Translations under genes and position numbers: made by a program | NCBI RefSeq assembly: GCF_963676685.1 | Contig: NC_092345.1 | Span: 60,884,001-60,948,000 of the forward strand | Length of the DNA stretch: 64,000 nucleotides | From: Mytilus edulis | Taxonomy: Eukaryota | Reading direction: 5' to 3' | Notes under the pieces: generated by a model | The model's input: the letters and a program-made list of their open reading frames with translations, nothing else | Told to the model about the DNA's origin: nothing | The model's database searches: none | Shown: piece by piece, positions 3,656-61,740 of the stretch | Numbering within the stretch: position 1 is the first letter of the stretch | Layout: each line of letters opens with the position of its first letter

Positions 3656-4030
3656 AGGTTAAAGGAGATTTGAAATTGCTATGATCATCCATCTGTCGTA
3701 CAAAAATATTTTCTCTATGGATACATAGCACAGAACATGGTAACCAACAAGAATTGATTTTAACTGGTTATAGGCAAATACAGTTCACAGTTTATAATGT
3801 TCAAATATCTACAATGAACAGGAATCATATTTTTATTCTGTAAATAATTAATGACAGAGAAATAAAATTTTAATCAATTCAAACGTTTTTAGTGTTTTCT
3901 ATTATGATACCCTGCCACAAGATCAATCAGGAAATTTAAGAAATCTGAGTTTTATAAAAAATTTGAATTTTGTTTTTCATCATGAAAAATAAAAAAAAAC
4001 ATGTTATGTAATTTGTCTTAAATCTAAATA

Positions 4031-5104
4031 TTAACCCATTAATCTCAGTGCAGCTAATGCCACCAGTGTACAAGACACAATAGTACCTACAGTATTCTTT
4101 ATTATATCATTTCTATATTGTTCATATGTAGTTTTTAAATTAGCAACATCTGTATCAATTTTGTTACGTACAATTTGCAATTGTTTTTCATTTTCTGCAT
4201 GTGCCTCCATAGACCTACTCCTCTCTAAATTAATATCTAGTTTGACGTGACCTTTCAGCTTTGATATTTCATCAGTTACATAAGTTTTCATTTGAAGGAT
4301 TTCAGCAGTTTGCATTTGATTTTCATTTCGCAACATAGTAAATTCACTTTTTTCTAATATAACCATGTCTTTTTTCACTGCACCAATCTGTGCCATAAGT
4401 TGTTGAACCATGATTTCCTGTTGAGGTTTTGTAACCATGTTCTTAGTATGATGTTCAATTGATGTATTGAGAACCTCAATAAATGCCTCCACCATGCAAA
4501 CGGATTGTTCTCTTGAAAACCCCTTGCTGTGAAACTTGTTTGCTAAACTTAAGGTGTCAAAATAGAAGAGTTTTACTTCTTTAGTTGCTGCCGGATTTAT
4601 AGATCTCCATTCATCTGATTGAAGGGAAGAACTAGAAATTGTTGCTTTATCCGGTATAGCTTGAACCTTTGTTGGACCAGCTGATGTGGAAAATTGTAAA
4701 GTGGTACTGGCAGCCGTCTGTGGTTCAGATATTGAGGTAGTGTTGGCTATTGTCTGTGGTTCTGATATGGCAGTATTGCTGCCAAGTGTTTGTGTTTCAG
4801 ATATGGCAGTTGTCTGAGGTTCGGATATGGGGGTAGCCTTTGCATCTACATGATCATACTTTGAGGAATTAAATCTTTTTGAAAGTAATCTTGTATCATC
4901 CAATTTTGTTTCTATTATATTGTCTAGTTTAAAGAATATGAATGACTTGTTTTGGCTTGTACGTCCAACATAATGTCTGATATGATGCAATTCTGAAATA
5001 TGCTGACTTTTAAAGTCGACTACGTTTTGCGAATTTGATAATCTTTCTCCGATAAAATGTTTTAACTTTTGAGAAGAAAGTCTTCCTAACACTCTTTGTG
5101 TCAT
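4031..5104 (-). CDS. MCUR1: Mitochondrial calcium uniporter regulator 1 / CCDC90-like protein (DUF1640), uninterrupted CDS, 357 aa
   Basis: The C-terminal half has the family pattern YFDT...F...GFS.EQ....V; QQ.MAQI..VKKDMVILEKSEF..LR.EN; KLDINLERSR; KIDT.VA.LKT; and a terminal TM helix. The basic N-terminus suggests a mitochondrial presequence. MCUR1 vs CCDC90B cannot be distinguished. Confidence 0.9.
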   Translation of the reverse strand: MTQRVLGRLSSQKLKHFIGERLSNSQNVVDFKSQHISELHHIRHYVGRTSQNKSFIFFKLDNIIETKLDDTRLLSKRFNSSKYDHVDAKATPISEPQTTAISETQTLGSNTAISEPQTIANTTSISEPQTAASTTLQFSTSAGPTKVQAIPDKATISSSSLQSDEWRSINPAATKEVKLFYFDTLSLANKFHSKGFSREQSVCMVEAFIEVLNTSIEHHTKNMVTKPQQEIMVQQLMAQIGAVKKDMVILEKSEFTMLRNENQMQTAEILQMKTYVTDEISKLKGHVKLDINLERSRSMEAHAENEKQLQIVRNKIDTDVANLKTTYEQYRNDIIKNTVGTIVSCTLVALAALRLMG

Positions 5105-5593
5105 GACTTAAACAAGCTTACATGTTAGTCGCCTCAATATACAGTTCCCAACTATGGATCTTGTGACATTCAAAAGTTATGGAAAATATTTCAACAGAAT
5201 CATATCTGGTTCTTAATCAACCTATTGAACGAAATTGATACACAAAACATCAACAAGGAACCAGTTTGATTAAAAATAATAGTTGTGTCACGTCTCCGTT
5301 TGGGATATAGAAGATTTCCGGAATTATGCAATCTCACAGTATTTGAGGTAATTAAAAAGAATTCCACCTGTGTGATTAACGCTATAAACAACCCAAGAAC
5401 ACGGCAGTAAATTCCATATTTGTCTATTTTAACCTAAGGCAATTAAAAAGAATTCCGCCTGCGTGTTTATAATAAGACTTGTGCAAAAGGTTGATTATTA
5501 CCTGGTAAAATATATACAAGAAAAAGGATACCAGCTCAGTCTCCCTAGCCTGGGATCCCGACTCACTGCTCGACAGTAGTCAGATTAGATTTG

Positions 5594-5965
5594 ACCTCAA
5601 GGCACAGTGCTTGGTCCAATTTTATTTTTAATCTTTATTAATGATTTGGCAGAATATATTGAACATAATACATTAAGATTGTTTGCAGATGATAGCATTA
5701 TTTATAGGGAAATTAAAAAACCAGATGACACACTTAAACTACAGTCTGACTTAGAAGCGGCCGGCAAGTGGGAGCAGGACTGGCTCATACATTTTCACCC
5801 TGATAAGTGCAACATTCTCAGTGTAACTAAAAAACGGAAACCTTTAGACTTCACTTATAAATTACACAATCACTCTCTAGAAAAAGTCGACTCTACAAAA
5901 TATTTAGGCCTAACTCTTCAATCAAATTTAAAATTGGACAAACATATCGATAACATGACATCAAA
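5594..5965 (+). mobile_element. CR1-group LINE, 5'-truncated, RT fragment (left part)
   Basis: Encodes PQGTVLGPILFLIFINDL...RLFADD...LQSDL...FHPDKC...KYLGLTL and stops abruptly at a TIR at 5966. Confidence 0.92.
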
Positions 5966-6480
5966 TAGTACGGTGACCAGACCCAATATTTTTTAGATTT
6001 AATCGTCAAACATACTATATGGCTATATTATATATCATTGGATTCGGAAAATTGAGTACTATTGAAATATCGATGTCGTCAAAAAAAAATGTGGTAACAG
6101 TTTTGCATAAAATGAGGTCAAAGATCAAATTCTGTTTTTATTTTTTCTTCTTCTATACTTTCAAAATTTGAAGAAATATACAACAATTTAGGTTAAATTC
6201 TAGATAAATACATTTTCTTATATCAATTTTCAATGAATCATCTCGAAAATGTTCAAAAAAAAAATTGAAAAAGAAATCGATTCTCAATAAATGATGAATA
6301 TTATTTTTACCTGCATCCTTCTGTCATGAAGGCATATTTTGCATAAGACCATTCATGAAATTCATTAAAACTGAAAAGCACTCAATTATTCGAAAATAGT
6401 TACAATTCAACATTCCAATCAAAGAGATCCACACAACAGAATTATATCTTCTGGTTAATTGTCAAGGAACATGATTTGAA

Positions 6481-8819
6481 ATTTCTACATAATTCTGACC
6501 CTTTACAGGACCAAAGCCCCGGACATGCAAGGTTTTGTAGTGAACAAACACATGACTCTTTCACATGCAGATTTTCCTTCAATGAAGACACAAGATCCTG
6601 CAAGAATTCTGCTGAAATATGCTTTTTAAAATAAACGGGGTGTAATGAATCATTTTACTCTCGCCAACCGTATTCTTAAGGTGACCGGATAGGGGTTTAG
6701 CAATGTGTAATGCGTTTCAAATTTTTAGTTTGAAACGAAGTACGTAAAACATACTGTTTCAGTGCCGTCTCGCAGGAAGGTAACCTGACTAAACTTACAT
6801 CTTACTTGTGGTAAACTTGAATAATTATTATGATGGAGTGGTTTTAAAGAGATAGTTCTGATCATAAACCTTTGAATTATCTTTCATGCCAAAACAAGAG
6901 CTTCATCATTGTCAATATTACCGAAACTCTAAACACAACTGAAATAGTCGTGCGTGTCCTTCGAAGTCTTGTAGACAGTTTGTATACCTACTCCAAACAG
7001 AGACGAAGTTGCGTCGCATCCGGTAAGTACATGTGCAGCAGGCAATAGTTTACAAATTGTTGGGGAATTACAGACACATAGTTATTGAATGGGTGAAAAT
7101 CTCCGCCCATCATTTACACTGCTAATGTTCCACATCTGCAACCACAACTCGCTTGTATGTGTCCTATTTTTATAGTAGCGAACACACAAAACAATTACAA
7201 TTGCATAAGAGGTCTGTATGATTGTTCTTCCACTCTTTCACATTTCCCTTAACTCCGTGTCAAATTTTAAGGCATGGGGTATAGGCCTTCTCTTGAGTGC
7301 TGAACAAGTTACGACAGCCATGAACAGTGTTGGTATAAATAACTAAGTTTCAAACGTTCTGACTATGTAAAGCTCACATCAGGTGGAATCTTATCGGATT
7401 TGTCAAGGTTTTCCAGTCAGGAATACTTCTCCGCTCTATAATCTGATACACCTTGATGGAAGCTGTAGTCTCTGTGCGGCGTTCCCTTTCGGCAGACTTT
7501 ATAGAGTTGTATGGCAAGCCGTTCTCGTCAAAACTATGTTTAAACCCTTTTTTCGAAAAAAATACACACTGAGAATTAAAAACCTAAAATAACACACTGA
7601 GAAATCGAAATTACACACTGAGATTTAAAAAAATAAAAAACACACACTGAGAATTCAAAATTACACACTGAGATTTAAAAAAGACACACTGAGATGAAAT
7701 AAATTGAAAAACACACACTGAGAATTGTTAATTACACACTGAGATTTCAAAAATACTCACTGAGATTAATATGCGAATTACTAATGAATATTCATGAGAT
7801 GAATAATTCAACAGATTTATATCTCGATCTCAAGAACTCTTGTCATTATAATGAAATGCGATTCCTTCAACCAACATTCGTAATAAATTTCAAGACTTAA
7901 CATCGCTCATGTTCATAAGTTTGTTGCCTATAATTCAGATCATTACTACCAGTAATTAAACATGTGTCCCTTTTCAAAGTCTTCCAAAGTTTGTTTCCCT
8001 GATTTCGCTAGTTAATCTTTTATATTTTTGTTACGTTTATATGCTATAATAGACACTTGAGTAAAAATTTCACTGCATTCTTTTGCAGATTGCTCCAAAG
8101 TTTTCTTATAATTTTAATAAAGTTTTTAACCATTTGGTCATATTTTGTAATAAGAGTAAGTGGGTATTTTTCTTGTTCTTGTATTTCTAAAGTTTTTTTT
8201 ATTAATAATTTGGAACCAAATCGAAGGACTAACGAGTTTTGTCCCCTTGTTGTTTTAAGCTTGTAATAGATTCAGATTAAGTATGCTAATTAGATATGTG
8301 CGCGTAAAAAGTGCGCACAAATCTCAATGTGTAATTTTAAATTCTCAGTGTGTAATTTTAAATTCTCAGTGTGTAATTTCAAATTCTCAGTGTGTGTTTT
8401 CAGTTTATTTATTCTCAGTGTGTCTTTTTGAAATCTCAGTGTGTAATTTTTTAATTTTCAGTGTGTAATTTTCAATTCTCATTGTGCGTTTTTCATTTTT
8501 GTAATCTCAGTGCGTCTTTGTGAAATCTCAGTGTGTAACAATAATTCTCAGTGTGTAATTTTCAATTCTCAGTGTGTAATTCTCAATTCTCAATGTGCGT
8601 TTTGAAGTTTTTAAATCTCAGTGTGCTTTGTTGTAATTCTCAGTGTGTAAATTTTTCGAAAAATGGTTTAAACATAGTTTTGACGAGAACGGCTTGCCAT
8701 AGAGTTGTTCGTGTCGTAGCGGTCAAAAACATGTGCTATATGTGCGCCATAGAAATTCATTGGGACATATTTTTTTAATAGTAAGCTGCAAGGTCGCCGC
8801 ATGTTTTACACTCATCTGC
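6481..8819 (-). pseudogene. Decayed Academ XPG-like nuclease plus Cys-rich C-terminal coding region
   Basis: Manual translation gives an H3TH-like HVLTGCDATSSLFGVG motif (~6985-7045), a P.EYGW motif and a Cys cluster. It contains stops and frameshifts and is interrupted by the 7510-8701 element. Confidence 0.8.
7510..8701. mobile_element. Non-autonomous foldback DNA transposon, IS3EU-like termini, with inverted ~20-bp satellite arrays
   Basis: Ends tatggcaagccgttctcgtcaaaactatgtttaaacc / ggtttaaacatagttttgacgagaacggcttgccata; 6-bp TSD gagttg (7504-7509, 8702-8707). Left arm has acacactgaga repeats (~7563-7765); right arm has tctcagtgtgt repeats (~8320-8650). Confidence 0.88.
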
Positions 8820-9629
8820 GGCTTAGCTTAGCGAAAGGTAGTGCGACGTAATCAGTCAAACAAACTTTATTAGATTAACTCTCTAAGGAACGATCGATTC
8901 CATTGGTCAATTCAAACCTTCGACTTCACGAAAATAGAACACACATACTATAACGTTGAATGGACTGATTAATATTCACTTATCTGGTCAAGGTCGTTTA
9001 AAGCTTCCATCGACATATTCTCATACATGATTCCAATCACAATTCTAGCTTTTATAAATGTGCATGTAAAATTCATTGGTTTTATAGTTTTCTGCAATTG
9101 GTAGTAAAGTTTAAACTTTAAAATCTTAACAGTTTTTACATCTAAATATTAATATTAAAATAATTTAAATGTCTCCTCTAGATCAAGGGACGACATCAAA
9201 AGTTCAATGTAGGATAAAAAAAAATCAATTCACATATTGTTTTCATTTACTCCCCCCTCCCCCCCCCCCCACCCCAAGTTGCTTATCCTGCATTTTCTTT
9301 TACTTAATGGACTCGATGAATTAACGTTGTACTTGAAAAATGAAACCGTACTTTACTACAAACACTTCATATTCTTTTCCAAGTTTTATGTATTCGACAT
9401 AGGATAGCGATTTTTTTTCTGATTCCGTTTACTTGAAGAAAAAAAATCCCGAAATTGTAAGTAAATTCATAACATGTAACCAACCTTGCTTTGTTAAGAA
9501 AAAAACGGAGATGGTCAATCATGGCACAGGGGATGATTAAATGTAGTTTATAAACTCCAACGATATACTTAGGTTTTGCTATTCTCGGTTGAAAAACGAA
9601 CGTAAATTATATATTGTAAGTATTTAAAG

Positions 9630-9818
9630 ACCGTTGGGTTTCCCGTTTAGATGGTTTTACACTCATGAGTAATTTTGGGGACCTTTATAGCTTGTTGTTC
9701 AGTGGCTCCGTGTTGAAGGCCGTACGTAAATTGACCTATGATGGTTTACTTTTATAAATTGTTATTTGGATGGGGAGTTGTCTCATTGGCACTCACACCA
9801 CATCTTCCTATATCTATG
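9630..9818 (+). repeat. Dispersed repeat family A copy
   Basis: Similar to 2674-2830. Confidence 0.8.
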
Positions 9819-10112
9819 TAAATAGAAACAAACAGTTTTTAAAAAAGTGTTTATTCATTAAATCATTTAAATGTATCGATAAAAAGGTGAGTGTCTTCTT
9901 GTACATGTGCATTTAGTCATCCTTAATTTCTTGATATTTTGTTTATCAGTAATACCATACACGTTTCGTTTTTTATTTCATTTTAAATACGAATACATGC
10001 TACATATACTTTAGCGGATAGTCCAACAATGTTATGCAGCTCTATTCTTACAGTATAAAATTGAAAGATAAATATTCATCCATTTAAAATCGAAAACAGT
10101 ATATTTTTATTT

Positions 10113-10265
10113 AAAAAAGATGTGGTATGATTGCCAATGAGACAACTCTCCACAAGAAACCAACATGACACAGAAATTAACAACTATAGGTCACCGTACG
10201 GTTTTCAATAATGAGCAAAGTCCATACCGCATAGTCACCTATAACAGGCCCCGAATTCAAACAAG
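10113..10265 (-). repeat. Dispersed repeat family B (related to A)
   Basis: aagatgtggtatgattgccaatgagacaac...; other copies at ~19425-19528, 25532-25905 and 56690-56880. Confidence 0.8.
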
Positions 10266-12774
10266 AGAATTGTTCCTTATAAACTACGATTTCTCACAAG
10301 TATTAATTTATCATTTAGTTCCACACATGCATAAGAAATAATCTTCGCCGATGTCACATTTCAATTTATTACAACAACCTGCCTTCACTGAATTCATTCA
10401 GGTGCACCAATGATACGATTAAAGTTATTTTGTTTCTATCTTTTGGGGACAATTTACTCCGTTTATGGTACGCTTATAGCTACATTTTTGTACTGTGGGT
10501 ATGTTTTATAGCATGAAAATAATAAAAGAGGAATGTCAGTGCAACCCTGATTAATTATTGTAATGGATCAGTGTTATGAGATACTTATTATAAGTAACTA
10601 CGACATTTTTAGGATTATAACCTATCGTCAGTATGAAAGAAATTAAAAGTGGTTCATATATTCATCCGTATAAAAGCGGCACATGTATTTTATTTTATCC
10701 TTATATTTCTCATCATGCCGGGTACAAGATAATTGAGTTGCTGCATGCAAAGAACTTAGAATATTACTTAAAACAAAATATCAGTATAATATTTCGACCC
10801 CACTATTTGAAGTTAACAAAACATTTAGAACGAAATTTATAACAGTGTGGTCGACAGTAAAACGTTTATTAGTAATTGTACTGAAAAGTTTACCTTTAAC
10901 TTGTTTGTCGTGGGCGATGATTTTATGCTCACTCAGTCTATCGGAGGCCTTCAAGTGGGGATTTTAATAATCATTTCTTACAAATTTTGATACATAAAAT
11001 GAAACTTTCTTTTCACAAATCATTTAAGGAATTTATTTTAAATAATAAATTATTGTTATACCATCACTTACAACAGTTTCACTTTTAAGAATATTAAAGT
11101 CCAGAGCTGATATCAATAAATAATAATAAAAAAAAAGTTTATTCATGGTAAAAAAAAACCAAAAAAACTTTTAAGTTAATAGGGACCCGCGTTATATCAG
11201 AAAATATCTTATTGATTAAGAGAACAAAAACTTCTACGTTGTGATCATTTAAGAGTGGCCTTGTATTTATTCAATGCTAACCATGTGGGCTTTGTTTTTT
11301 TTATATATATATACCATAAATCGATTCGTTCATTCAGATTTTTGTCAGTTTGCCTTGGCTCTTCAAGTCCAACACACAACTTCTCACGAAATTGGTATTT
11401 TTCTTACAAAAATTACATCCATGTGATGTATTTTTTTCATGGAGAATGAATGTTGCACCTTATTTTATTTGTTATCGTGTTTTTTTGTGTGTATCATTGA
11501 CGTATAAGACAACCTGAATCTTCTTTATTCAAATTTAAAACATACGAGATGGCAATTATGACACAAAATAACTAAATTAAACTTACAGCAGAAGAAAGAT
11601 AATGAACATTTATATTGGAAAAAGTAACGGTGTGTAAATCATAACAATTATTTTATTTCAATGAAAATCAAACTGTTGAATTTTTTTCCGCTACGAGCAA
11701 ATTTTTAATTTTGGTCGCATTTTGAAAATCAATAAATCTTGTATTCTTGTTGGAAGCTGCACTGTGTAGTTTATACCCGTTTTTTTTTTCAATGCATGGG
11801 TAGGCATTATATTCGTGATTATTTTTGCCCGAGCGATATCGAAAAACTATTATAAAAAGTGTCCTAGTTCAGTGAAAATGTACGTCATACTTATTTCCTA
11901 AACAAATAAATAAACAAACATTAATTAACATACAACACTACCAAAGGCCAGACACTCCTTACTTGTATGATTTTGTAAAAAAATGCATCTTTTTAAAACA
12001 GTCGAAAACAAAAGTGTCTGTCCAATGGAAAAGTCGAAGCCCAAAAAAGATGAACAGTGCATTATAGAAACATAGAAGCTGGTTGCAAAAGTTGACGACA
12101 AGATCTATTTTATAACTTGAGTATGGCCTAATACTATTAACCTGAAATAAATATATTTATAGCAATTCCCTTGATACGAAAGATCTACATGTTGCCTTGG
12201 GCTTTTTTTTTTTTTTCTTTTTTTTTTTTTGCTCTTTGGTTGGGTTTTTGTCTCAATGACAATTCAATTTTCATTCTTATCATAGATATAACTGCATGTT
12301 AAAATAAGAATATGAAGTTTGATAGACAATCAGACACATTCTTTCCAGGGACCAACAGGCGTTATCAAGCTATAGGTCCCCGTATGGCCTTCGACCATTA
12401 GCAAAATACACACTTTATAGAATGAAAGCTCCAAGAGGTCTTGGGATGAAAAAAAAAACAACATAAAAGATGAGCGAGAAAAAAATAGGGATACCGCATG
12501 GAAATTGGAAAATGGTTCGCAACATTAATTTAGTCAACTCACTTAGTTGAAATTAAAGACCTGGCGAATTTTAGCCTTTTGCAATGGATGTGATGTATGT
12601 TTAAAAAAAAATCATGGTTTGTTTGGACATTTTTATAAATCAAGTCTTGTTTTTAAATTATTTGCAAGTAAGTTTTAAGTCATGAACAAATAATCACTCA
12701 CAGAAAGACGTCAAATCCATCAACAAAAGAAAAAAATTAATAGACGACCGACAACGCACAGAATATCATGTATG

Positions 12775-12886
12775 TGTTCCGGACCATATGAGTATTTGGA
12801 CCATACGCATATATCATGACCATAAGGGTATACTAATATGGTCCAACCATACACGTATGGTCCAAATACTCATAAGGTCCGGAACA
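12775..12886. mobile_element. 112-bp palindromic MITE (TGT...ACA ends)
   Basis: tgttccggaccatatgagtatttggaccatacg / cgtatggtccaaatactcataaggtccggaaca; flanks tatg/tatt look like a degenerate 4-bp TSD. Confidence 0.7.
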
Positions 12887-13887
12887 TATTTTATTTGCGA
12901 TCACAAATGCACGAAGACGTCCATTTCTATGTAAATTGGGTCGATTTTTTTATATAGATAAGATGAATGCGTTTCTGTTGCCAAGTGTTTTTCACAAGTA
13001 TAGTAGCAGTATAGCAGAACGGTTTAAGTTTCCTATATACACCAAATGATACATTTTGCCAATACAATAACGTAAATGCATGCAAATTTCACAAGGTTTA
13101 ATCCAAATAGCTTTCTTACTATCCAATAACTTTCAAGTACGAAAAAGACATGGCAGAAGTATATTTTGTCTTTATGTTTCGTATTTGCACAACTTTTGAA
13201 AGTGGATTATGCATTCGTTCTAAAATAAAATTAGACCAGATAAAAGTTAAAAGATTACATAACTCGACAATCGCAATTGTTAAATCCGAAAAAGATAATC
13301 AATCAATACATGCATTCAGTAAGTCATTCTTTTTTTCTGAAAGAACATGGCTTTGCGATATCTTATTATGAAAATTGATTGTCGAAACATAACAAAAACA
13401 CAAGTAAAGGACGTTTAATTAATCAATATAAATCAAAACACAAATTCCTGATTAGTATTTCGAATTATTTTATATAGGCGTTGAGAACCTTTGGTGACCC
13501 CACGGTTTAAATGTTTATATTAAGGACGTCGTGAGCAATGGGCGTTATGGACGATCGTTCACCTAATCTGTCCCAGTCAATGGTATATTAAAGTGCGCCA
13601 ATCAATGTCCATAGCCACACTGTTATGAATTCGATACTATTTATTTCTTTTGACCAAAGGTTTGTAAACTATAAAAATCATTGTTTTTACGTTCGTAGTA
13701 ACATAGTAAATTCCATTGTCGGTCACCTGTGTCAATTCACGTGCACACTGACTACATTATTGTTGTATTTAAATCTTTCGGCCAATGAAATGAGACGTAA
13801 CAAATTGTTTGTTTGTGATACGCAAGAATGTTATCAATGATCTATCAAACGCTAAAGTCGACTGCATTTCAGTATACCTTTCTTAGC

Positions 13888-14800
13888 ATTAATAAATTGA
13901 ACCAATGCCATACCATCTCTTATGTAAGTTGTGAGTGATGGTATAAAGGAAGGTAGGGAAAGTGCATCAGAGATATTGGACTATAAAAACTCCTTGTGAT
14001 CACGAATGATAAAATGTTTAGACATTTTCAAGCCTTCCTCGACAACTGTGAGCAAAGAACCTCAAATATGTCTTGAAGCATGCATTTAAGAAGAGATATT
14101 GATAAGACATTGAGGGTGGGATTCCACACCAAAGGGATCAGTCATGGATCATTTAGATGATTCACAATGGCAATAATATGTTCTTCATCTCTGTTCATTG
14201 CTGTTGGCTTTGTTTCTTACTGTGAATTTGCATAATTTTCAGCATTTCCATCCCTTTTCAGTATTACACGACTAATGCATTCTATGAAATGTCTATTATG
14301 GGCCCATCGAACAAGCGCAGACTTTCGAATTGTAATGCCTACAGTGCCACCCAATCCCCTCGAGGCTTTTATAACGGTCTTTTCTGTTGCCATGTCATAG
14401 TACTTCAGTTTAAAATGTCCAGGAATCTGTCTAAAAAGCAAAGTAGCCATCTATAAAAGGTGATCAAATGTTCACAGAAAATTGAAGCATATCGAGTATG
14501 TAAAATGGCATCCACTTTCGTGGAGTACGTTTGGTTACAAAAATATAATTTTACATTTGAGATGACGATCTCAAGGAAGAGACCAATTTCCCTCTCGTTC
14601 TGCTCTAACATTTGACAGCTAAATGTCTACTGCTTCAGGGAACATATCCCAGTATGTAAATATAAGTAATACATCACATCCAAATAGCGTATATGTATCT
14701 ATAAGAGGCTGTATATGAGCTTCAAATAGCTCCGTCATATGAGCGTTATGAATTTTGTCTGGCTTGAATTGCTGAAATAGTGCTTTTGAGACAAATGAAT
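13888..14800 (-). pseudogene. Decayed Academ transposase region
   Basis: ORF fragments 14217-14450 and 14405-14611 carry H.RYAS and D.A.E....GG..G.T....AL.RW-type motifs; they continue into the XPG-start motif at ~13890-13925. Confidence 0.7.
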
Positions 14801-15290
14801 TTGATATTATTGATTAATAAAGGTACAAATGTATGAAATAACATATAAATGTTAATTATTTTACATTTTGCGTTAAAAAAATCATGAAATTAAATTGGAA
14901 CGTACGCTATTAAATGCAAAGTATTCGTAGTGTTAAACTTTTACAAAAACTCTTTAATAAAGAAATTAATTTTGCTAAACTTTCTTTGAAATCGTTACAA
15001 TAATATGTATAAGGTGTAACAACGATGTAAATAATAACAGAAATCATATCACGGATGTTATTTTACAATGTTGACCTCAAAACTTTTCTTAGTCGATTTT
15101 TCGTTCAAGTTAATTAACGTACTTCAAAGCCCATTTTACGAAAATTGCACCGTACGATTTTTTGACGACAAGTCAAAATGTTAAGTTTAACCTTTGAACT
15201 ACCAATACTGTGATTTATAGCCGTATAGTCCAAATGACAATTAAACTCCTTAAATAAGCGACTTTTCCTTACTCGGTCACCGTACTAAAA

Positions 15291-16022
15291 AGCAAACCAG
15301 TCCCTTGGATTTATTCGTAGAAACCTAAAAATAGCATCACCGAAAGTTAAAGCTCACGCATATAAAGCTCTTGTCCGACCAAAATTAGAGTACTGCTCAA
15401 CAATTTGGGACCCACATCAAAAACAGCAAATTTCACAAATCGAAAAAGTTCAAAGAAGAGCAGCACGCTTCTCATGCAACCACTTCCATAACACCAGCTC
15501 AGTTACTGAAATGATGACAGACCTAAATTGGTACCCACTCGAAATTAGGCGTTTACGATACAGACTTGTTTTCTTTTACAAAATTATACATGAAATTGTT
15601 GCAGTCCCTACACATAACCTTTTGATCCCACTAGACAATAGAACCAGACATAGCAATCCACACTCATTTAGGCAAATACAAACATCCAAAGACAGTTATA
15701 AATAATCATTTTATCCACGAACTGTTATAAATTGGAATCATCTGCCACAACAAATAGTATCATGCAGTACAGTACAGGGATTCAAGAGTATGATCTCAGA
15801 ATCTGCTCTCATCCCGATATTCTATCCCTAACTATTCTGTTATCAAATGTATATAGTTTTATCACAATTCATTTTTTCAAATGTAAATACGTTATGTTGA
15901 TTTTTTGATTTTGTTATTTTTGATTTTTGTTGCTAAAGTGTAAATTATAAATTATTTTATAGTCGACGCCCGGCGAATAATCTTTAATAATTGAAGGATC
16001 GCTAGAAACCTAAAGAAGAAAA
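15291..16022 (+). mobile_element. CR1-group LINE, right part (RT C-terminus plus 3' UTR)
   Basis: Encodes KANQSLGFIRRNLKIASPKVKAHAYKALVRPKLEYCSTIWDPH...IEKVQRRAAR...SFYPRTVINWNHLP, in frame with the left part once the Academ element is removed. One premature stop at 15703-15705. Confidence 0.9.
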
Positions 16023-18511
16023 AGGGTGAAAGCTCTCGACCTGGAACCCAAACACACGGACATAGTTATTGATAAAATCTGGGAACAATATATCGAGCTT
16101 CCCGGAGAATATTAAATCTGGATAAAATCTGGGACTATTATACTGTTTTAGTTGTTGTCACGTTGTCCCCACGGTAAACAAGAAAATTAAAGAGAAAACT
16201 CAAACTAAAACTTGCTGATATTTATTTCAACACAGAGTGACACAAATCTAAGAGAAACATTAATAATATTTCATCCATTTAATTACTAAGTCTTTGCTGA
16301 GACCAGAGATATATATAATATACCTGTATTATATGACCCTAGTCGTAGACTTTGCTACTATACTGTCACCGTCTCTTTTTTTTACTTTGTTTATTACAAT
16401 ACTGATTGTTTAATATATTCTTTTGTAATTCTAAATTCAATAAAATGAATGATTAAATGTAGTCAAAAGCTGCGCGCAAACGTATAATAGTTTAATCTCC
16501 AAATGCGCGCAGGCAAATACTAGTATATATATATTCCTTTGATAAACCAAAACTGCCTCTAATACCGATAAATCTTTATAATATTTTAAGAACCTTCGCA
16601 TGCAGAATAAATACTGAGAGCTAGACAATATAATACACGACTGTCATTAGGTATACTAGTATTGAGAAAAAAATAGGAAAAGAAAAAGTGACTATAGCAA
16701 GTCGGCAATTCAGTATTGATCACAGACACCGAAAACTGCTAGTCTTCAACACAGCGAAAAAAATCCCGCTTCCAGAGGTGGGCTTATGCTGGTCTCTAAA
16801 CAAAAATATGTACTAGCTCAATGAAAATAAATATGGCAAATATGTTCTTATCGTGAATATGCAATTAATTTCATCATCATCAAAATCTGTTGATCACTAC
16901 TGCATGGGAACAGTATATCTAACAATATATATGTTCCTGATCACTACTTCTTCTACTGCATGCGCTTGGAATATAAATTCTTTTAAATGAATTTAGTAAT
17001 TTAAGTTTCTATACCAACTCGAAATCCGGTTGCTTCTTTTATTCTACGTGTTAATGGTCATACCAATATTTCGTTATAGTTAGTACTTTAGTAGTTTTAC
17101 AATTTTGCCGTCTATCAGAGTACAGAGCGATGCATATGCACTGCTTCTACGATGATTAGTGCAAAAAGAACAAGCCCCTTCACAAAGGTTGATACAATGT
17201 TCAAATAAAGCGTAAGATACCAGATCATTTGAAGTCAGCCCCCAATTGATGTTCCAAAGTTATGCCAAGTGTTGTACTGGTCAAACTATTATCACACCCT
17301 GTTAGATTTCGTCCAATAACTCGTCAGGCAAAATTTATTTCCATATCTAATACCTTTTATTTTCCTGTGGCAGTCCAAATTCTTCCTCATCCCTGTCGTC
17401 CCACATCCAGTACCTACACATATGTTGTCAATAATTTGACTTTCCGGGATCCCGTAATGAAAATGCATGGAATAATTGCCACTGCATGGATGTACAGGGA
17501 AACAATATCAATCAATTGTTCAATCAAAGCTTTTTTGACAAGAATCACATCAGAAATCCATTACCAGACTAGCTCATAGTCAAAATGACAAAAGGAACGG
17601 AAGCACCTTTCCTATTGTAATTTTTCCAGTCGTTACAGCGATGTTATGTCGACTCCATCTTGTGTGTTCCTCCAATCCAGAAAGATTTATGAACATACTA
17701 TTTAGACGTCTTCAGTATTCTACAGTTCACAAGGTATATTTTTCTATCCAGAATTTTTTACGGGGTGCATATTTACTTTGATATACTACGACTCTTGTCA
17801 AAAACAATGCAGGTGGACTTATGATTTTACTTATACTTATACCATCCATTCAATATTCATTGGTAACAATACGTTCTATGTTTTGATAACAACTTAACAA
17901 TTTTCGTAATTTTAACGAAACCCAATATGATCCAATATCGAAACTGACTTTTAAAATATCTGCATAAATTTAAGTGGTTGATCTCTACTGTATCTATACC
18001 CGTTTTACAACCAAGCTTTGGGATATCAGCTTTTCTGTAAAGCATAAGCAGGAAACCATAACCAGTGAACCATTTACGTGCGGGATACAAACTAAAACCG
18101 AGAGAAACACATCAACTATAAAAGGAAAACAACGAAACAACAGAAACACTTTTAAGTGCAACAAAAAACCAAACGACAATTTAAAAGAGGGACGAAAGAT
18201 ACCAGAGGGACATTCAAACTCTCAAATCGAAAATAAACTGACAACGCCATGTAACACACACAAAAAAGAACAATAAGATAACAACTGCCATTTTCCTGAC
18301 TTGGTACAGGACATTTTTTGAAAAAAATGGTGCGTTAAACCTGGTTTTGTGGCTACTAGCTAAGCCAAACCTCGCGCTTTTATGGCAGTGTTAAATAATA
18401 TAACACTGAAAGGACAACATTACATGACAGGACTACAGTACACATAAAGGTTAAAACATTCAGGACAGAGAAATACACAAATAAACAAAGGAATAATACA
18501 TTTCGACATGC

Positions 18512-19110: not shown

Positions 19111-20668
19111 TAGTATCACTTTATCAATTTGAATTTTAGAGAAAAAACTAATTTTTCAAAATACGGAATTTTGCAATCTAATTAGTTTAACGAAATCAGA
19201 GATTAATATTTTAATTAGATTTGGGAATTTTGTTGTACGCTGACATCTAGATTTTTAAGCATCCTATATATATGTCTCAAAATGCATTTAAGAAAAGCTG
19301 TATTTTTTTCATATTTTTGTTCGGCAAACTTGAGATGAAAACTACGATGAAATAGAAATTTTGTCGTGGAAAAGTCCGTTTATAATACTAGTTTTAAATT
19401 GAAGTAATATTCTGGAAAACTATTTGTTGAAGGCCGTATGATGATCTATAATTGTTAATTTCTGTGTCATTAGGTCTCTTGTGGTTAGTTGTCCCATTTG
19501 CAATCATACCACATCTTCTTATTTTTATAACTATTCTCATTATGTTTATTCAGTTATTAAAAAAGATTCCACTGTTACTGAATTGTGTTGAAATATTGAT
19601 CATTGGATTTAGCTATTATCACATGTGATCTGCTCTCGAAATTGACAATTTTCCATTACATATTACGTTATATTTAAACAACTGGGAATTTTAAAGGTAT
19701 TTATAAATGGCGCAATGCCAAAATAGGTTTATTTATGTCATTTGAATTTAAAAGTATAAGATGGATTATATTTCTTAAATTTTAATACGTTATAAGGTAT
19801 GTAAAATATATTCAATATTCCTTATACATGTTTGAATTTGGGAGGGATAAGTAATGATCTTGGGAGAGCTTGATAATAAAAACTGTAAGTGTCACATATT
19901 GATAAACAATAACCTTTTACTAAGAAAATTAGATTAATTCTGGATCTTCAGAGCTAAGGGTTAGGGGTTCCTATTCCCCGTCAGTCAGCCGTCTGAAATA
20001 ATACAGTGATAGAGAATATGTGACGATTTTCAATGAGAATCCCGCATACCAATTATTTGGACAGGAGTGTCTGGACTACTTCATTGATTTCTAGTTTGTT
20101 CACATGGAATTTGGGATTAACCCCTGTTATTAAGGATGTAAGTAACCAAATTGCAATCAAATTACATTAATTTGTTGTATATGTGCCATACATATTTGTA
20201 ATGTCATGTCTGATACAGCATGCACTCTGACACTCTATAAAATTTGAAAGTTTATTAATAGCATTTATAAAACAAAATATGTGTAACACAGAATTTATCT
20301 TTGGAATTTAAGAATGGATTAAACAGACATTTAACCAAATATCAATGGTAGGACGTTTTATGTGTCGATGGTTTTGGGTATAGACTAGTAGCTTTCTGTT
20401 CCACATCAAGTCACATCAAAAAGATAATTGCGTATCATCGACAGGTTGAATCAATATACCATACATAGATTGGTGTTGAACTTAAAATAAGCACAATAGA
20501 TTCTTTTTAAATTTAACAAAGGAGTCTTGAACATAGTAAGAACTTTAATAAATAAAGTATCCACACAAATATTGATTGCATTTAACATTTATTGACTTGT
20601 TTAATGTTATTTCTTTTCCTTTGTAGATTTCTTAATATCAATACGCCAACGCTAGTTCAACTAAACGA

Positions 20669-21640
20669 ATGTTCAGCAACGTTTCACTTCCTGCTCAAGA
20701 AAATGAGGACATAATTGAGAAAACGATAAAAAGAAACAAAACTAATACAAGTACTGATAATGATTATAGTATACAGTGCTCTCCTAAGAAGAAACACACT
20801 GAAACAGAAAACAAAAAAACAGAAAAAAGTGAAATTGAGAAAACAGAAAAGAGTGGATTTGAAAGACTAAAATTTGACAATCAAACAACATTTGATATAA
20901 AATGTTCCGAAAGTAAGCCCTGGATTAGTAGCATTGATGAGCTTCCAAATGGAAATGTTGTTTTGACGGACTTTTGTAACTGTAAGCTGTATGTTTATAA
21001 TCAGAGTTTAGAAATATATAAAGCTATTGATGTAAGTGGAAAACCTTGTGCAATAGCAGTGATAAATAGTGACAAAATTGCTGTTACATTACAAGAAAAG
21101 AAATCTGTGGCACTTGTAAACATTCTGACTAGAAAAACGTTCCGATATTTGAATGTCGAAGACAGTTGCCATGGAATTACGTATACCGATGACAACCTCG
21201 TTTTGAACTGTCTAGAAAAAGGGTTAACGTTTATCAGTTTGGACGGTGCTGTGCAAAATACAATTTCTGATGTTACAGGCGAAGCTTATTTGTGTTCATC
21301 TGACAATGGTAATATTTACTGTGCTGTATATTGGTCACATAAAGTCTTGTGCTTCAATAGACAAGGCGACGAGATATATTCCTTTTCTAATCTGACAATG
21401 AAATGTATTAGAGGTATATCGGTTGATCATCAAGGACAAGTTTTTACAAGTGAGTTTGGAAAAAATAAAATTCATGTTATCAATTCCGAGGGAACAAAAT
21501 CACACGTGATTCTCTCGAAGAAGCATGGAATAAACAAGCCGCTGTGTGTACATTTCAACCGAAATGACATGTGTTTGTACGTTTCAAATAATGACGGAGA
21601 ATCAGTTTCAATGTACAAATTAGATTCTTCCTCGGAATAA
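20669..21640 (+). CDS. NHL-repeat / six-bladed beta-propeller protein (TRIM-NHL-like C-terminal domain), 323 aa
   Basis: Blade motifs LPNGNVVLTDF.N..L.VY, P.AIAV, CHGIT, GNIY....SHKV, RGISVD..GQVF, P.CVHFN..LYVSN. Splice acceptor tttcctttgtag at 20626, in-frame stop at 20633-20635 upstream of the ATG, and AATAAA signals just after the stop. Confidence 0.85.
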   Translation: MFSNVSLPAQENEDIIEKTIKRNKTNTSTDNDYSIQCSPKKKHTETENKKTEKSEIEKTEKSGFERLKFDNQTTFDIKCSESKPWISSIDELPNGNVVLTDFCNCKLYVYNQSLEIYKAIDVSGKPCAIAVINSDKIAVTLQEKKSVALVNILTRKTFRYLNVEDSCHGITYTDDNLVLNCLEKGLTFISLDGAVQNTISDVTGEAYLCSSDNGNIYCAVYWSHKVLCFNRQGDEIYSFSNLTMKCIRGISVDHQGQVFTSEFGKNKIHVINSEGTKSHVILSKKHGINKPLCVHFNRNDMCLYVSNNDGESVSMYKLDSSSE

Positions 21641-36048: not shown

Positions 36049-36693
36049 ATGAAGCTTCAATTACTGCTCCTGACGAGTCCCTTACGTCTGTTACAGTACC
36101 AATGACATTTTCGCAAACAGCAAAGGATACGATCAAAACTACCTCCTTAGTATATCAGCCTGATACATCTTCATTGTCATCATCATCATCATCGACGTCG
36201 TCGTTTTGGTCGTCGTCGTCCTCCATATCCCCATCATCAGCAGCATCATCGACGTCGTCGTTTTCATCGTCGTCCGCACCATCATCATCATCGACGCCGT
36301 CATTTTCGACGTCGTCCTCCTCCATATCCTTATCAGCAGCAGCATCATCGACGTCGTCATTTTCATCGTCATCCTCACTATCATCACCAGAATCATCATC
36401 GACATCTTCCTCACCATCATCATCAGCAGAAGCATCATTATCATTAGTAGCAGCAAGAACAACTACAGAATCATCTCTATCATCATCACCATCATCATCA
36501 ACAACATCATCATCATCATCATCATCGTCGTCTTTAACACCAACAAAAACAATAGCAGCATCAACTTCCGGGCAGACATTTAATATATCTACTACAGAAC
36601 TTTGGTCTTCAGACATTTCTTCACACTCTCGGATAGAATCATCGACCAATGAAACATACAGATCTAAGGGTGACACAAATGCAGATTCTATAG
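36049..36693 (+). CDS. Mucin-like membrane protein, Ser/Thr-rich ectodomain exon
   Basis: Acceptor ttctttcaacag and donor ag|gtaaag; 645 bp, phase 1-1; poly-Ser/Thr tract. Confidence 0.85.
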
Positions 36694-37479
36694 GTAAAGA
36701 AACACACTTTTCTTCAGGTTGATATGTATTTAAATTGTACCTTTTCGCAGAGATGAGACTTATGCGGTATTGTTGTCTACTCTTTGTTCATTACTAGTAT
36801 GCGTTTATTAACATATTTCACCAAGTGTACCAGGCTTATAATTAAGTATATCAGACGCGTTTTAAGTCTACGTAACACTCATCTGTGGTGCTTGAACCAA
36901 TAAGTGCTATTTACCATCATGATAAAACTATTATGGTAAAATACATGTACTATCATCTACAAATTGTCGGATGAAAAGAAGTTGAAATCTCATAATTTAT
37001 CTAATAACTTAATTATTCTTTTGTAAGTTTGATAGTAAGTGATCCTGTACGACCATGTATGAAAGTTTAGGACATCCCCTGTTATGAAATTGATGATAAC
37101 TAGTGAACAAAATTTATTCGAAAATTCAAAAAATATCCATATTTAGCGATTACAAAGAGAAAGAACATGAAATAGTTTATTGAGAAGTCATACTTAGAAT
37201 AGGGTTGTCAGTAGAATTTATGAGATGGCAATTTAAAGATTGAATGAGAAATCACCGAATTTATATTTACCATAAGCAACAATTGGCACTAGTGAATCAG
37301 GATCTGCTTACCTTACTGGAGTTCCTGAAGTATTCTTCAAGCTTTTGGTAGGGTTCTTGTAACCTTAGTTTAAAGTTTAAGATGTGGTGTTTTGCTTTCC
37401 TTTCTGTCGTCTTTCGTTTTTTTCATGGCTTTGTCCGTCAACTTATGGGTTTTGAATGTCTATTGGTACTAACCGCCCC

Positions 37480-42736: not shown

Positions 42737-44610
42737 AGCGAAACTGTGTCAAAACCCTAATGTATCGCACATCTTAGAACGTTTTCTTCATATTAAACAT
42801 ATATGTAATAATTTGTGTAACTCAATTTTCATGATCACGGAATATAAATTAATTACAACAAATATCAGCACTGTATTGCATTTATCAATAAAAATTATTG
42901 GGCTTTTCCTCGTCGGACCGACCAATACTTTTCCGAATAAAAGTATGCTAACAAACAAATTATAAAACGGAGTGCCTGGTTTTCTGTCCATCTGTCGCGT
43001 CTTGAAATCATAAGTTGAGCCTCGAGGGACAATATTTTTGCTATTTCTCTCATAGCAAGTGTATATTATACAATTAGATAACATCGGTATCAGTTTTAAT
43101 CACATTTAAGGTTTAAACACATGTCTCATAGTCTGATTGAAGAAGTTGCTTACACACGGGGTTATGTGAGTGGCTTCTTTTATTACTTTTTGTTGAAATT
43201 TGTAATGTTCCTGTAAGTTTTTGCCAGAACATTTTGTCGGAGTATTTGAGATATGTATAAGTTTGCAGGAAACATCTTAGATCATAGTCTAACAAATTAA
43301 AGTCAATGTCTTCAATGAGCAAAACTAGTAAATGGCGTCGGTGTTTCAATGTTTGGTGAAAAGCCTTCTGAAATTCCAATTGGCACCATTCACTTTCGAT
43401 GAAATTTGATGACAGAACTAATAGTGTAAATCTGCTATTCTCAACGCTATTGATGATATTTTCGGCTATGCAGGCCCCAGGTATGAAATCTTTGTGGTGC
43501 AGGCAAAGACTAGCATCCGGTAACAAAGATTGCAGTCTCTTAAATAACACATCGTATACCCATCGTTCATCTGACGAGCTGTATGAAATAAAAGCGTCGT
43601 AATGTTTGGGAATATCAGGACAATGACACTGAATGGAAGTTTTTACTCTATACAGTTGTGCAATTCTAGATTTAGCGAAACTGTGTCAAAACCCTAATGT
43701 ATCGCACATCTTAGAACGTTTTCTTCATATTAAACATATATGTAATAATTTGTGTAACTCAATTTTCATGATCACGGAATATAAATTAATTACAACAAAT
43801 ATCAGCACTGTATTGCATTTATCAATAAAAATTATTGGGCTTTTCCTCGTCGGACCGACCAATACTTTTCCGAATAAAAGTATGCTAACAAACAAATTAT
43901 AAAACGGAGTGCCTGGTTTTCTGTCCATCTGTCGCGTCTTGAAATCATAAGTTGAGCCTCGAGGGACAATATTTTTGCTATTTCTCTCATAGCAAGTGTA
44001 TATTATACAATTAGATAACATCGGTATCAGTTTTAATCACATTTAAGGTTTAAACACATGTCTCATAGTCTGATTGAAGAAGTTGCTTACACACGGGGTT
44101 ATGTGAGTGGCTTCTTTTATTACTTTTTGTTGAAATTTGTAATGTTCCTGTAAGTTTTTGCCAGAACATTTTGTCGGAGTATTTGAGATATGTATAAGTT
44201 TGCAGGAAACATCTTAGATCATAGTCTAACAAATTAAAGTCAATGTCTTCAATGAGCAAAACTAGTAAATGGCGTCGGTGTTTCAATGTTTGGTGAAAAG
44301 CCTTCTGAAATTCCAATTGGCACCATTCACTTTCGATGAAATTTGATGACAGAACTAATAGTGTAAATCTGCTATTCTCAACGCTATTGATGATATTTTC
44401 GGCTATGCAGGCCCCAGGTATGAAATCTTTGTGGTGCAGGCAAAGACTAGCATCCGGTAACAAAGATTGCAGTCTCTTAAATAACACATCGTATACCCAT
44501 CGTTCATCTGACGAGCTGTATGAAATAAAAGCGTCGTAATGTTTGGGAATATCAGGACAATGACACTGAATGGAAGTTTTTACTCTATACAGTTGTGCAA
44601 TTCTAGATTT
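42737..44610. repeat. Head-to-tail tandem duplication of 937 bp (42737-43673, 43674-44610), apparently identical
   Basis: Three ORF pairs recur at an offset of 937; junction ttctagattt|agcgaaac with 1-bp microhomology. Confidence 0.95.
43113..43673 (-). pseudogene. Duplicated TLR cytoplasmic/TIR segment with no start codon, ectodomain or TM
   Basis: Identical to the TLR C-terminus from KSRIAQ onward; in-frame TGA just upstream and no ATG before the TIR. Confidence 0.8.
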
Positions 44611-45876
44611 GTATTTAAAAAGTAGACACGCAACAAGAATGGCAAGAAAAACAAGCAAAAATGCGAGAATAGAATAATTAATCCTTTCGAAGATTCCCTC
44701 CCTGGCACCTACTAAACTTTCAGTTTTCTTACACATTCTTTCGTATGAATATTCAGATATGTTTTTCAAGTTTCTTTTGCTTTCTTGATCTATACACTGC
44801 ATTGTTTTAAGATATGTATATTGCCTCCAGTTCTTGTCATTAATCTCAGCAATGAATTCATAAAATAATTTTTGGTTACACGTACAAATAAGTGGGTTTT
44901 CTCTTATATTAACTGTATTTCTTTTTAACGCTTTTAACTTCTTCATATCTTGATTAGATATTTCAGCTATTACATTTTTTGACAAGTTAACGTTTAGATG
45001 ACTATTGAACATAATTGGTATGTAAATAAAGCTTATGTCCTCAATTTTGTTCATGGACAGATCAATCTGCTCCAATCTATCCACAGTTTCGTACATAGAG
45101 TATGTGAACAAACTACTTGGAGTCCGTGCTAAATTATTATTAGTCAAGTTAATTACATTCAAGGAGTTAAATATGCCGTTTTGTAATAAGTCGTTAATTC
45201 TTATTTCGGCGGTATATCTGTCCAGAGATGACATTTCAATATACTTGAGATTATTATGAGCACATCTTTCATGCCGTTTCAGTTCATTTCTATAATACTC
45301 CTCTAGATCCATTGATTTGTTTGCGATAGAGTACCGTTCTGACGGTTCAATAAAATTAAAAGAACTATTTTGAAAAATGAAAGTTAGTAAAGTGTTGGAT
45401 ATTTGACATTTCTCGTATGTCAATAACTTTCTGAAATTTTTCCGTATGTGTTTCACATGAACCAAGTGGCTGTACTCTATTTTGCAGTTGGTAAATTTCA
45501 AATTTTGCACTACCGATTCGATCGACAAAACTTCTGGTGAAAAATCATAATCATAATAATCGGTAATATAACAGTTCCTTACGGTTAATGATGTAAATCC
45601 CGGTAATTTTATTGGTTGCCTTATACTTATATTTCCACCACCATGACATTCTATTTCCAATGTAAATTGCTCGTCTTCTAAGTAAGACTTCTTTGTACCG
45701 TTCATAAGTTCACGAAAAATGTCCAGGCACCATTGTTCTCCATTGGTCACATCACAGATTACATTTGTAGGAGAAATATCAAGAAAGATCTTGCAGGATT
45801 TACCGATAAATCTTTGTCCATTTCCATACTGAAAATCAACCAGAAATAATATGCTATAAATCAGGAAAAACGGCAT
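44050..45876 (-). CDS. Toll-like receptor, single exon, short ectodomain, 608 aa
   Basis: Signal peptide; LRRs (LNVINLTNNNL, LEQIDLSMNKI, LNVNLSKNVI); LRR-CT (NPLICTC...C...C); TM (ILAFLLVFLAILVACLLF); TIR box1 YDAFISYS, BB-loop HKDFIPG, S..F..SEWC..EF, and box3 FWQKL. Confidence 0.95.
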   Translation of the reverse strand: MPFFLIYSILFLVDFQYGNGQRFIGKSCKIFLDISPTNVICDVTNGEQWCLDIFRELMNGTKKSYLEDEQFTLEIECHGGGNISIRQPIKLPGFTSLTVRNCYITDYYDYDFSPEVLSIESVVQNLKFTNCKIEYSHLVHVKHIRKNFRKLLTYEKCQISNTLLTFIFQNSSFNFIEPSERYSIANKSMDLEEYYRNELKRHERCAHNNLKYIEMSSLDRYTAEIRINDLLQNGIFNSLNVINLTNNNLARTPSSLFTYSMYETVDRLEQIDLSMNKIEDISFIYIPIMFNSHLNVNLSKNVIAEISNQDMKKLKALKRNTVNIRENPLICTCNQKLFYEFIAEINDKNWRQYTYLKTMQCIDQESKRNLKNISEYSYERMCKKTESLVGAREGIFERINYSILAFLLVFLAILVACLLFKYKSRIAQLYRVKTSIQCHCPDIPKHYDAFISYSSSDERWVYDVLFKRLQSLLPDASLCLHHKDFIPGACIAENIINSVENSRFTLLVLSSNFIESEWCQLEFQKAFHQTLKHRRHLLVLLIEDIDFNLLDYDLRCFLQTYTYLKYSDKMFWQKLTGTLQISTKSNKRSHSHNPVCKQLLQSDYETCV

Positions 45877-46346
45877 TGTTTACTTTGATCTTCAATGCAA
45901 TATAAACAACATTAAAAACTATACTATTGTGTTCTTCAGTTTTTTAAAGTCGCTTTGTATTGGATCATTTTCTATTAAACATTGATCGCTGTTAAGTAGT
46001 CATAAGGGAAACGGAAGTTTGTCCAATTGAAAAGTTACAAATGTCGACTACTATACCACTCTATATAGTTGTTTTCATTAAAAAGGAAATGAATGAAACA
46101 ATAGATGAGTTGGTTAATTTCCTGTCAATATACACTATAAATTGTCACATATTTACTAGTATAGTAAGGTAATAACAAACAAAAATATCGAAAGAAAAGA
46201 ATTATAGCTGTTAAATTTCATTTCCAATGCATATTCTCTGCAATAAGAAAAAAAACCCTACAAATCAACAGATTATTACTGAACGACCTTGTAACTTTAA
46301 AAAAAAAGGGGGGGGTTATGTTTTTATTACAAACACAAATATCCTG

Positions 46347-58656: not shown

Positions 58657-59066
58657 TTACTACGGTAAAATAAGTATATATATTATATGTATGTGGTGAT
58701 GCAACTATGTACGTGTAAATAGTTTACTATGGTAAAATAAGTATATATATTACATGTATGTGGTGATGCAACTATGTACGTGTAAATAGTTTACTATGGT
58801 AAAATAAGTATATATATTACATGTATGTGGTGATGCAACTAGGTACGTGTAAATAGTTTACTATGGTAAAATAGGTATATATATTACATGTATGTGGTGA
58901 TGCAACTATGTACGTGTAAATAGTTTACTATGGTAAAATAAGTATATATATTACATGTATGTGGTGATGCAACTATGAACGTGTAAATAGTTTACTATGG
59001 TAAAATAGGTATATATATTACATGTATGTGGTGATGCAACTATGTACGTGTAAATAGTTTACTATG
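58657..59066. repeat. 67-bp minisatellite, 6 full copies
   Basis: Unit ttactatggtaaaataagtatatatattacatgtatgtggtgatgcaactatgtacgtgtaaatagt, starting at 58657, 58724, etc. Confidence 0.95.
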
Positions 59067-59201
59067 TTGAAATAGATATATTATGTATTGAACCTGTAGA
59101 TTTTGAATAGTTTAACCATGTTAATATAAGTATAGTATGTCAAGACCATAATGTTTTGAACCTGTAGATTTTGAATATTTTATTTTAAACAAGTATGATA
59201 C

Positions 59202-60949: not shown

Positions 60950-61740
60950 AAAATATACAAAAATAAATAGTACAAATTTTCAATAAGTATAATATAATTG
61001 TGTTTTGGAATTTGAGATAAAATCAATGAGCTATTTGTAATGTGATCGTATCATTGTTTTGAAGGATGGAATTTGGAAACTGTTGGAATTTGTGGAATTA
61101 GTTTTTCATGTTATATATTGTGTACCATTTCTATTCGCGAATATTTTCTACTGTCAGGGTGGTTGTTTCATGCAAGTGGATTAGACAACCTCCTTTGAAC
61201 TTTTTCATTTCTGTCTAAGTCTTGTTGTAAGTAAGGCTCCAAAACTGAGCAAGCATACTTAGTGATGGTCTTACTATGAAGTTGTATGACTTCACCTTAA
61301 TGAATGGTGAGCTAATGTTCATTCTGCTCCTTAGAAACTTAAGAGTTCTAATAGCTGTCTTTCATATATTATTTTTATGTACATCCCATTTAAGGTTAGA
61401 GCTGATGGCTGTCTTCAGATATTTTGCTGTTGTGGTGATCACTAAAGAGTGATTGTGCAATGTGCAGATAAATGACATTTATTTAATATTTCTGCTAATT
61501 ATCAACCAACAATGGGTTAGGGAAATCGAAATATATTTTTCAGTTGTAATGTACCCTAAAGATTGATTATGCAATTTTTGAAATTTATATTTCTGGTGAC
61601 TGAAGATTTTATTGCCGAATAAAATTATGTGCCATCTGCAAATAAACGCACGGTAAGACCGGTTGGAATGCATTTTATGTAGTACATTCAAAGACTTGGT
61701 CCAAGAAATGACCCCTTGGAAACCCTTGACCCGTCATGAT
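60950..61740 (-). mobile_element. Old CR1-group LINE RT relic
   Basis: Manual translation: SKGSFLGPSL, VRLFADG, AKYLKTAISSNLKWDVH, MNISSPFIKVKSYNFIVRPSL; homologous to the LINE at 5594/15291. Confidence 0.75.

Follow-up and report, generated by a model that had tools for sequence, protein, structure and literature searches.

The 64,000-nucleotide stretch of Mytilus edulis DNA analysed here (contig NC_092345.1, positions 60,884,001 to 60,948,000; hereafter the window) is AT-rich eukaryotic DNA and carries, at positions 5594-16022, a nest of transposons. A long interspersed nuclear element (LINE) is split by an Academ-type DNA transposon, which is interrupted in turn by a miniature inverted-repeat transposable element (MITE) and by a non-coding element, insert 2, that holds a further one, insert 3. 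The coding sequence of the Academ is heavily decayed, and this decay was inherited by a multi-copy, non-autonomous Academ family. We consider it probable that the stack arose by sequential nesting in place, the dead Academ having moved in trans, most likely empty, with its cargo arriving later.

Inherited decay of the Academ element

Other copies were assessed from four public runs (of 24 listed) aligned to positions 8655-16400, together with a metagenome contig, L006. Run X24 is a Hi-C library of uneven depth and the other three used are contig runs; one of the 24 listed runs is labelled as gill metagenome. L006 (1,306 bp), one of four loci from a scan of metagenomes, matches 6542-7510, 8699-8809 and 13875-13973 of the window without the MITE or insert 2. 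It differs from the window Academ at 16 of 1,168 columns (14 substitutions and two 1-bp indels) and is thus 98.6% identical. All 11 stop triplets on a homolog-guided path through L006 are also present in the window, and two frameshifts are common to both. Four lesions belong to the window copy alone, namely a stop, two deletions of 1 bp each and, near 13970, the loss of at least 138 bp.

A rough simulation gave 0.7 stops at 1.2% divergence, and around 10-40% divergence was needed for 9-11 stops. Since L006 shares all of its stops with the window, and a divergence of 1.2% would yield only about 0.7, the decay belongs to the family master. Because a cargo-free sister carries the same stops, we infer that the Academ must have moved in trans. 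An Academ already dead before it moved had been proposed in a preliminary description of this stretch, and the stops shared with L006 bear this out. In addition, a high-depth contig of run X2 (record 21; three differences over 14027-14192) crosses the position of the frameshift near 14146 with no gap. P0137, which has a different source, shows 95% identity and terminates where the window has its stop, although this could be the end of a contig instead.

Raw-read depth in X24 was 77-112x over the Academ body, 75-145x over the LINE and 0.17x over the right flank, which shows that both elements are multi-copy without giving a number. In X2, record 21 is roughly 50 times as deep as the flank contig, a crude ratio that is not a copy number. 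A dip in raw-read depth at 14871-15129 has no counterpart in the three contig runs and was treated as a library effect.

Structure of the nest

The Academ element (5966-15287, minus strand) is 9,322 bp long with its cargo and approximately 3.06 kb without it, and was delimited by its terminal inverted repeats (TIRs), its target site duplication (TSD) and its homology to proteins of 1,500-1,640 amino acids. The TIRs are perfect over 13 bp (5966-5978, plus strand, and 15275-15287, minus strand). Beyond them the similarity extends over around 140 bp, up to about 6114 on the left, and is gapped and imperfect; to call the TIRs perfect, as had been done, is accurate for the terminal 13 bp and overstated for the remainder. 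Their TAG-initial sequence has two exact matches in the window, and three at up to two mismatches against 0.31 expected. The trinucleotide AAA stands on both sides of the element (5963-5965 and 15288-15290). Removing 5966-15287 preserves the LINE reading frame with a further deletion of either 0 or 3 bp (one AAA), so the frame, on which this junction had been rebuilt, allows either length; the TSD of 3 bp is nevertheless correct, because the residues of P0006, the closest relative of the LINE, run collinear across the junction.

On the minus strand, the Academ matches its protein relatives from around residue 830 to their Cys-rich end. The coding remnant lies in three pieces, namely 6448-7509 (a nuclease-like region and the Cys-rich C-terminus, from frameshift-aware alignment to P0139 and P0148; 98.7% identical to L006), 8708-8808 between the two inserts, and 13875-14740 (C-terminal part of the transposase, whose N-terminal 800 or so codons are gone), all on the minus strand. 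The second piece has a private 1-bp deletion near 8738, where 17 of 30 reads carry the base that the window copy lacks. Frameshift-aware alignment guided by P0139 gave 17 stops with 5 frameshifts, and with P0148 as guide the counts were 16 and 6; internal deletions were found as well, and some of these stops and frameshifts fall in poorly aligned stretches. An autonomous Academ would have an intact full-length open reading frame (ORF), whereas here residues 1 to about 800 are absent and the remainder contains around 17 stops and five to six frameshifts, in agreement with the earlier view of a heavily decayed element. Pfam gave no match for the Academ remnant or for the inserts. Among the relatives, DUF6589 was found in one of three, and a profile of 17 of them matched only Exonuclease 1 chains, weakly (E=0.018-0.1).

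The outermost layer is a 5'-truncated LINE on the plus strand. Its 5' piece (5594-5965, start approximate) holds the C-terminal half of the reverse transcriptase (RT) domain (5595-5963; PF00078, E=2.9e-12), and its 3' piece (15291-16022) the end of the ORF, the 3' untranslated region and a GAA-rich tail. P0006 is a single ORF of 1,177 amino acids with PHD-like, endonuclease and RT domains; its residues 875-997 align to 5595-5963 and residues 998-1177 from 15289 onwards. The 5' piece is 78% identical to residues 875-999 and the 3' piece 74% identical to residues 998-1177. The RT domain and the collinearity with endonuclease-RT ORFs place the LINE in the apurinic/apyrimidinic endonuclease (APE) type, and its C-terminal motifs and GAA tail tentatively suggest RTE-X as a candidate clade, with the CR1 group as the other. 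No target duplication of the LINE itself was found. What is present amounts to the last 300 or so codons of an ORF of about 1,180, approximately a quarter. The description of this LINE as nearly intact was therefore overstated; the single stop it reported is there (15703-15705) and is private to the window copy, 159 of 163 X24 reads differing at 15705. On our reading of the record coordinates, the LINE appears to be present at this site in all three contig runs, since three single-copy flank contigs (records 8, 16 and 24) seem to reach 25-31 bases into the LINE tail before they end. An older, decayed LINE fragment related to this one lies at 61189-61825 (minus strand; 29-39% protein identity to P0006-P0008).

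The MITE (7510-8701, 1,192 bp) has TATGG ends, a TIR of 37 bp that is perfect (46/50 overall), inverted 21-bp subterminal arrays and a 6-bp TSD (7504-7509 and 8702-8707), of which L006 retains one copy at the empty site. This junction and its hexamer had been correctly identified in the preliminary description. No Pfam match was obtained in the two of six frames scanned, and with TIRs, a TSD and no coding capacity the element conforms to a MITE. Its TATGG ends make a link to Crypton-related elements a candidate; no tyrosine recombinase partner was seen. Another MITE with TATGG ends, from a different family, lies at 59202-60196 (TIR 45/45), and a third copy resembling an end is located at 59648. 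The outer flanks of this MITE lack a 6-bp TSD, and its left flank occurs again ahead of 59648, suggesting internal rearrangement. Just to its left is a 67-bp tandem array (58657-59081; 6.4 copies, 96% matches).

Insert 2 (8809-13874, 5,066 bp) is bounded by a TIR of 18/32, a score matched by 0.11% of random pairs, and by a TA TSD (8807-8808 and 13875-13876). Its empty site, the joint 8806 to 13875, was found in all four runs (10 reads with 9 starts in X24; 3, 4 and 1 contigs in the others), and L006 shows the same empty site. The borders previously given for this insert, 8820-13887, have no TSD and no TIR (7/32, reached by 83% of random pairs), and the true borders lie 11-13 bp further left. 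They had been set by restoring a reading frame, which cannot fix them: of 40 deletions of this length that were tested, 24 preserved the frame, and 11 different peptides resulted. Sister copies read ...FINAKKGKTCGD at the empty site, and the ADECKT of the rebuilt peptide is therefore a chimera of insert 2's own end. A repeated TTAGC was considered as the TSD and rejected, as reads and L006 show its right-hand copy to be Academ sequence.

Insert 3 (10828-13637, 2,810 bp), which had been missed, lies within insert 2 and has a TIR of 18/23 (a score matched by 5 in a million random pairs) and a TA TSD (10826-10827 and 13638-13639). The joint 10825 to 13638, its empty site, was found in all four runs, with 33 reads in X24. 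TAG...CTA at 10826-13639 was considered as the ends of a second Academ and rejected, since the empty joint keeps one TA and the duplication is hence TA. Reads were aligned at 90% likeness, a setting prone to false joints; the sides of both joints measure 27-68 letters and both fall exactly at the TIR-TSD borders. With TA TSDs and imperfect TIRs, EnSpm/CMC or Tc1/mariner was considered for both inserts; neither has a coding remnant, and no Pfam match was found in any of six frames. Thus a nest of four levels is shown, comprising LINE, Academ, insert 2 and insert 3, and of the three junctions rebuilt in the preliminary description one is wrong. A 118-bp palindromic element within insert 3 (12772-12889) may be a fifth level.

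Insert 2 also contains a very high-copy short interspersed repeat (9624-9817, minus strand; several window copies, with depth and loose ends at 9817 and an approximate left end) and a second, related one in the opposite orientation (10113-10250, plus strand; right end approximate). Contigs in two of the four runs skip 9624-9815 (side 23-24 letters), hinting that some insert-2 copies are without the short repeat. The short repeats of the window resemble ones of mussels. Self-BLAST of the window found no second copy of the LINE family, the Academ, the MITE or the inserts, only the short high-copy repeat. Rfam gave no match over 4000-18000.

Divergence of the layers

From its family relatives, the Academ differs at 14 of 1166 positions (1.2%) and the LINE at 3 of 223 (1.35%; Fisher p=0.75 against the Academ), the latter measured on the deepest and closest listed piece. 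Insert 3 shows 3 substitutions in 975 bases (0.3%, p=0.03) across five listed contig pieces and is the youngest layer. Both elements also have older relatives, as three further listed LINE pieces differ by 5-8% and the majority of the listed Academ 5' pieces by 7-10%.

The preliminary description had seen an oddity in a nearly intact LINE hosting a decayed Academ, and had itself named a LINE as diverged as the Academ as telling against its reading. The two are about equally diverged. The oddity is a comparison of lesions inherited from a family master with lesions gained in place, and it disappears once the two elements are seen as roughly contemporary products of different masters, active for the LINE and decayed for the Academ.

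Neighbourhood of the nest

An uninterrupted ORF of 357 codons with a CCDC90-like domain (4031-5104, minus strand; PF07798, E=4e-45) begins close to the nest: about 490 bp separate its first ATG from the stack's 5' end, which places the 10.4-kb nest in the upstream region of this ORF. The ORF includes a 36-bp tandem repeat at 4716-4810. Two adjacent minus-strand ORFs (43116-43685 and 44053-45879), each with a Toll/interleukin-1 receptor domain (E about 1e-15), are likely Toll-like receptor genes. An acidic, Asp-rich low-complexity ORF over 99-bp and 3-bp tandem repeats (36158-36787, minus strand) gave no Pfam match, and an ORF of 334 codons at 20636-21637 (plus strand) gave weak beta-propeller matches below Pfam cut-offs.

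Discussion

Our data are consistent with a model in which a 5'-truncated LINE would first have inserted at this locus. A non-autonomous Academ of approximately 3 kb with AcademX-type ends, from a master whose transposase gene was already deleted and stop-ridden, would then have joined the LINE by cut-and-paste, with a 3-bp TSD and a transposase supplied in trans. Such a transposase needs only the element ends, a point established for non-autonomous TIR elements. This Academ copy would later have received the MITE and insert 2, and insert 3 would have landed last, in insert 2. The anatomy, the empty sites of the MITE and of inserts 2 and 3, and the inherited decay are direct observations; the movement in trans, the order of the events and the arrival of the cargo at the present locus, not an earlier one, are what we infer.

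The preliminary description had instead held that a cargo-laden 9.3-kb Academ was mobilised as a unit; the MITE and insert 2 would then have entered the dead Academ elsewhere, and a unit of 6.5-9.3 kb would have jumped here. In the boldest form of this reading, a long-dead remnant, after some 10-40% neutral decay, was recently re-amplified and a copy with 6.3 kb of other transposons jumped whole into the LINE upstream of the CCDC90-like ORF, which would make dead Academs vehicles for other elements in bivalves. We regard both forms as improbable. In their favour, the ends of the Academ are intact and its family clearly moves in trans, the ages of LINE and Academ overlap, insert-2 pieces look more diverged than their host, and composite movement has a precedent in MarCry-1_FO, as an excerpt of that report describes it (PMC3212892). 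All readable sisters, however, are free of cargo (insert 2 in four of four runs; both inserts in L006), and no read, contig or locus among those listed shows cargo in another Academ copy. Furthermore, the loaded copy is tagged by its deletion near 13970, which lies some 100 bp away from the cargo junction and is found in none of the runs: at the neighbouring position 13968, the letter of L006 is read in 26 of 26 reads and accounts for the whole contig depth of the three contig runs. Amplification of a loaded unit is disfavoured by this result, with which a single cut-and-paste move is compatible. A loaded jump also demands that all cargo post-date the 1.2% split from L006, and adds one event that no observation requires.

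Copying of the Academ family by segmental duplication or in a tandem array, rather than by transposition of a dead master, is slightly less probable again. The comparison data are without flanks of other copies, and two end-pattern scans gave no loci, one in viral contigs and one in genome contigs for the right Academ end. In the other pattern scans, viral contigs likewise gave none, and both genome-contig loci and three of four metagenome loci were dropped as chance matches of 20-28 bp. The right flank is at single-copy depth with the Academ body far deeper, however, and a clean TSD within the LINE frame is the mark of a transposase acting on an already decayed element. That the stack is in part an assembly artefact of collapsed repeats we think very unlikely. 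No indexed run contains more than 0.52 of the sampled words and no listed piece spans the whole stretch, but assembled contigs drop rare or private variants of repeat copies, and four inserts have TIRs and matching TSDs exactly at empty-site joints, which mis-joins do not make.

Several points weigh against sequential nesting of an empty Academ. L006 is a single short contig, perhaps a collapsed consensus; the LINE divergence comes from a single 223-bp piece (95% interval 0.3-3.9%); and the empty joint of insert 2 is seen in 10 reads only, at a nearby depth of around 30. The listed insert-2 pieces are 2-8% from the window (3/156, 8/172 and 15/187), more than the Academ host, which is not predicted by a plain inner-is-younger order and is unexplained unless insert 2 has subfamily structure. 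The read and contig comparison begins at 8655, to the right of the Academ's left end and of the body of the MITE; the run tables give the best 40 of 576 differences and the best 15 of 497 joints; and the outer flanks of other Academ copies lie beyond the data.

The element at 5966-15287 fits the AcademX type, as judged from its own features. AcademX elements end in TAG...CTA, and TIRs starting with TAG, as those of the window element do, serve as a criterion for them; the large Academ transposase is followed by a nuclease domain labelled XPG/FEN1-like. According to a section of PMC10045372, AcademX makes a 3-4-bp TSD and encodes a nuclease. The AAA on both sides agrees with this and the weak Exonuclease 1 match of the relatives may do so, whereas the window element is without the N-terminal half of the gene and has further deletions and around 17 stops. 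AcademH combines a 9-10-bp TSD with a helicase, unlike the 3-bp TSD here and relatives without a helicase match. A passage of PMC5751038 gives Academ no Pfam domain, and one of PMC10294476 describes Academ, RTE-X and CR1-Zenon as rich in bivalves. The domains of P0006 are like those of bivalve APE-type non-long-terminal-repeat retrotransposons of the RTE-X or CR1 group, and the named protein relatives come from pearl oyster and lancelets. TATGG termini with 5-6-bp direct repeats are described, in an extract of PMC3212892, for CryptonS elements, which are said there to lack TIRs.

The window nest is an ordinary nested stack. Plant PIF/Harbinger deletion derivatives such as Medicago MtPH-A6-4-IIa and MtPH-M-2-IIa were likewise later hit by nested insertions, as a portion of PMC2213677 reports; they belong to another superfamily and host, and the window family differs in having amplified with a heavily decayed coding remnant. 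MarCry-1_FO resembles the composite first proposed here in being a TIR element that carries another element. Four of its copies, more than 97% identical, carry the cargo in the account excerpted from PMC3212892, whereas no second loaded copy of the window Academ was found among the listed data.

Collectively, the nest defines the ends and empty sites of four repeat families, and indicates that ORF decay dates the master of a family and not an insertion. Although its master had around 11 stops in 390 codons, the Academ family reached dozens of near-identical copies, which implies that a working Academ transposase was available in trans not long ago. Should loaded copies turn up between other flanks, dead Academs would count as carriers of multi-kilobase cargo and would give rise to structural variation in bivalves.

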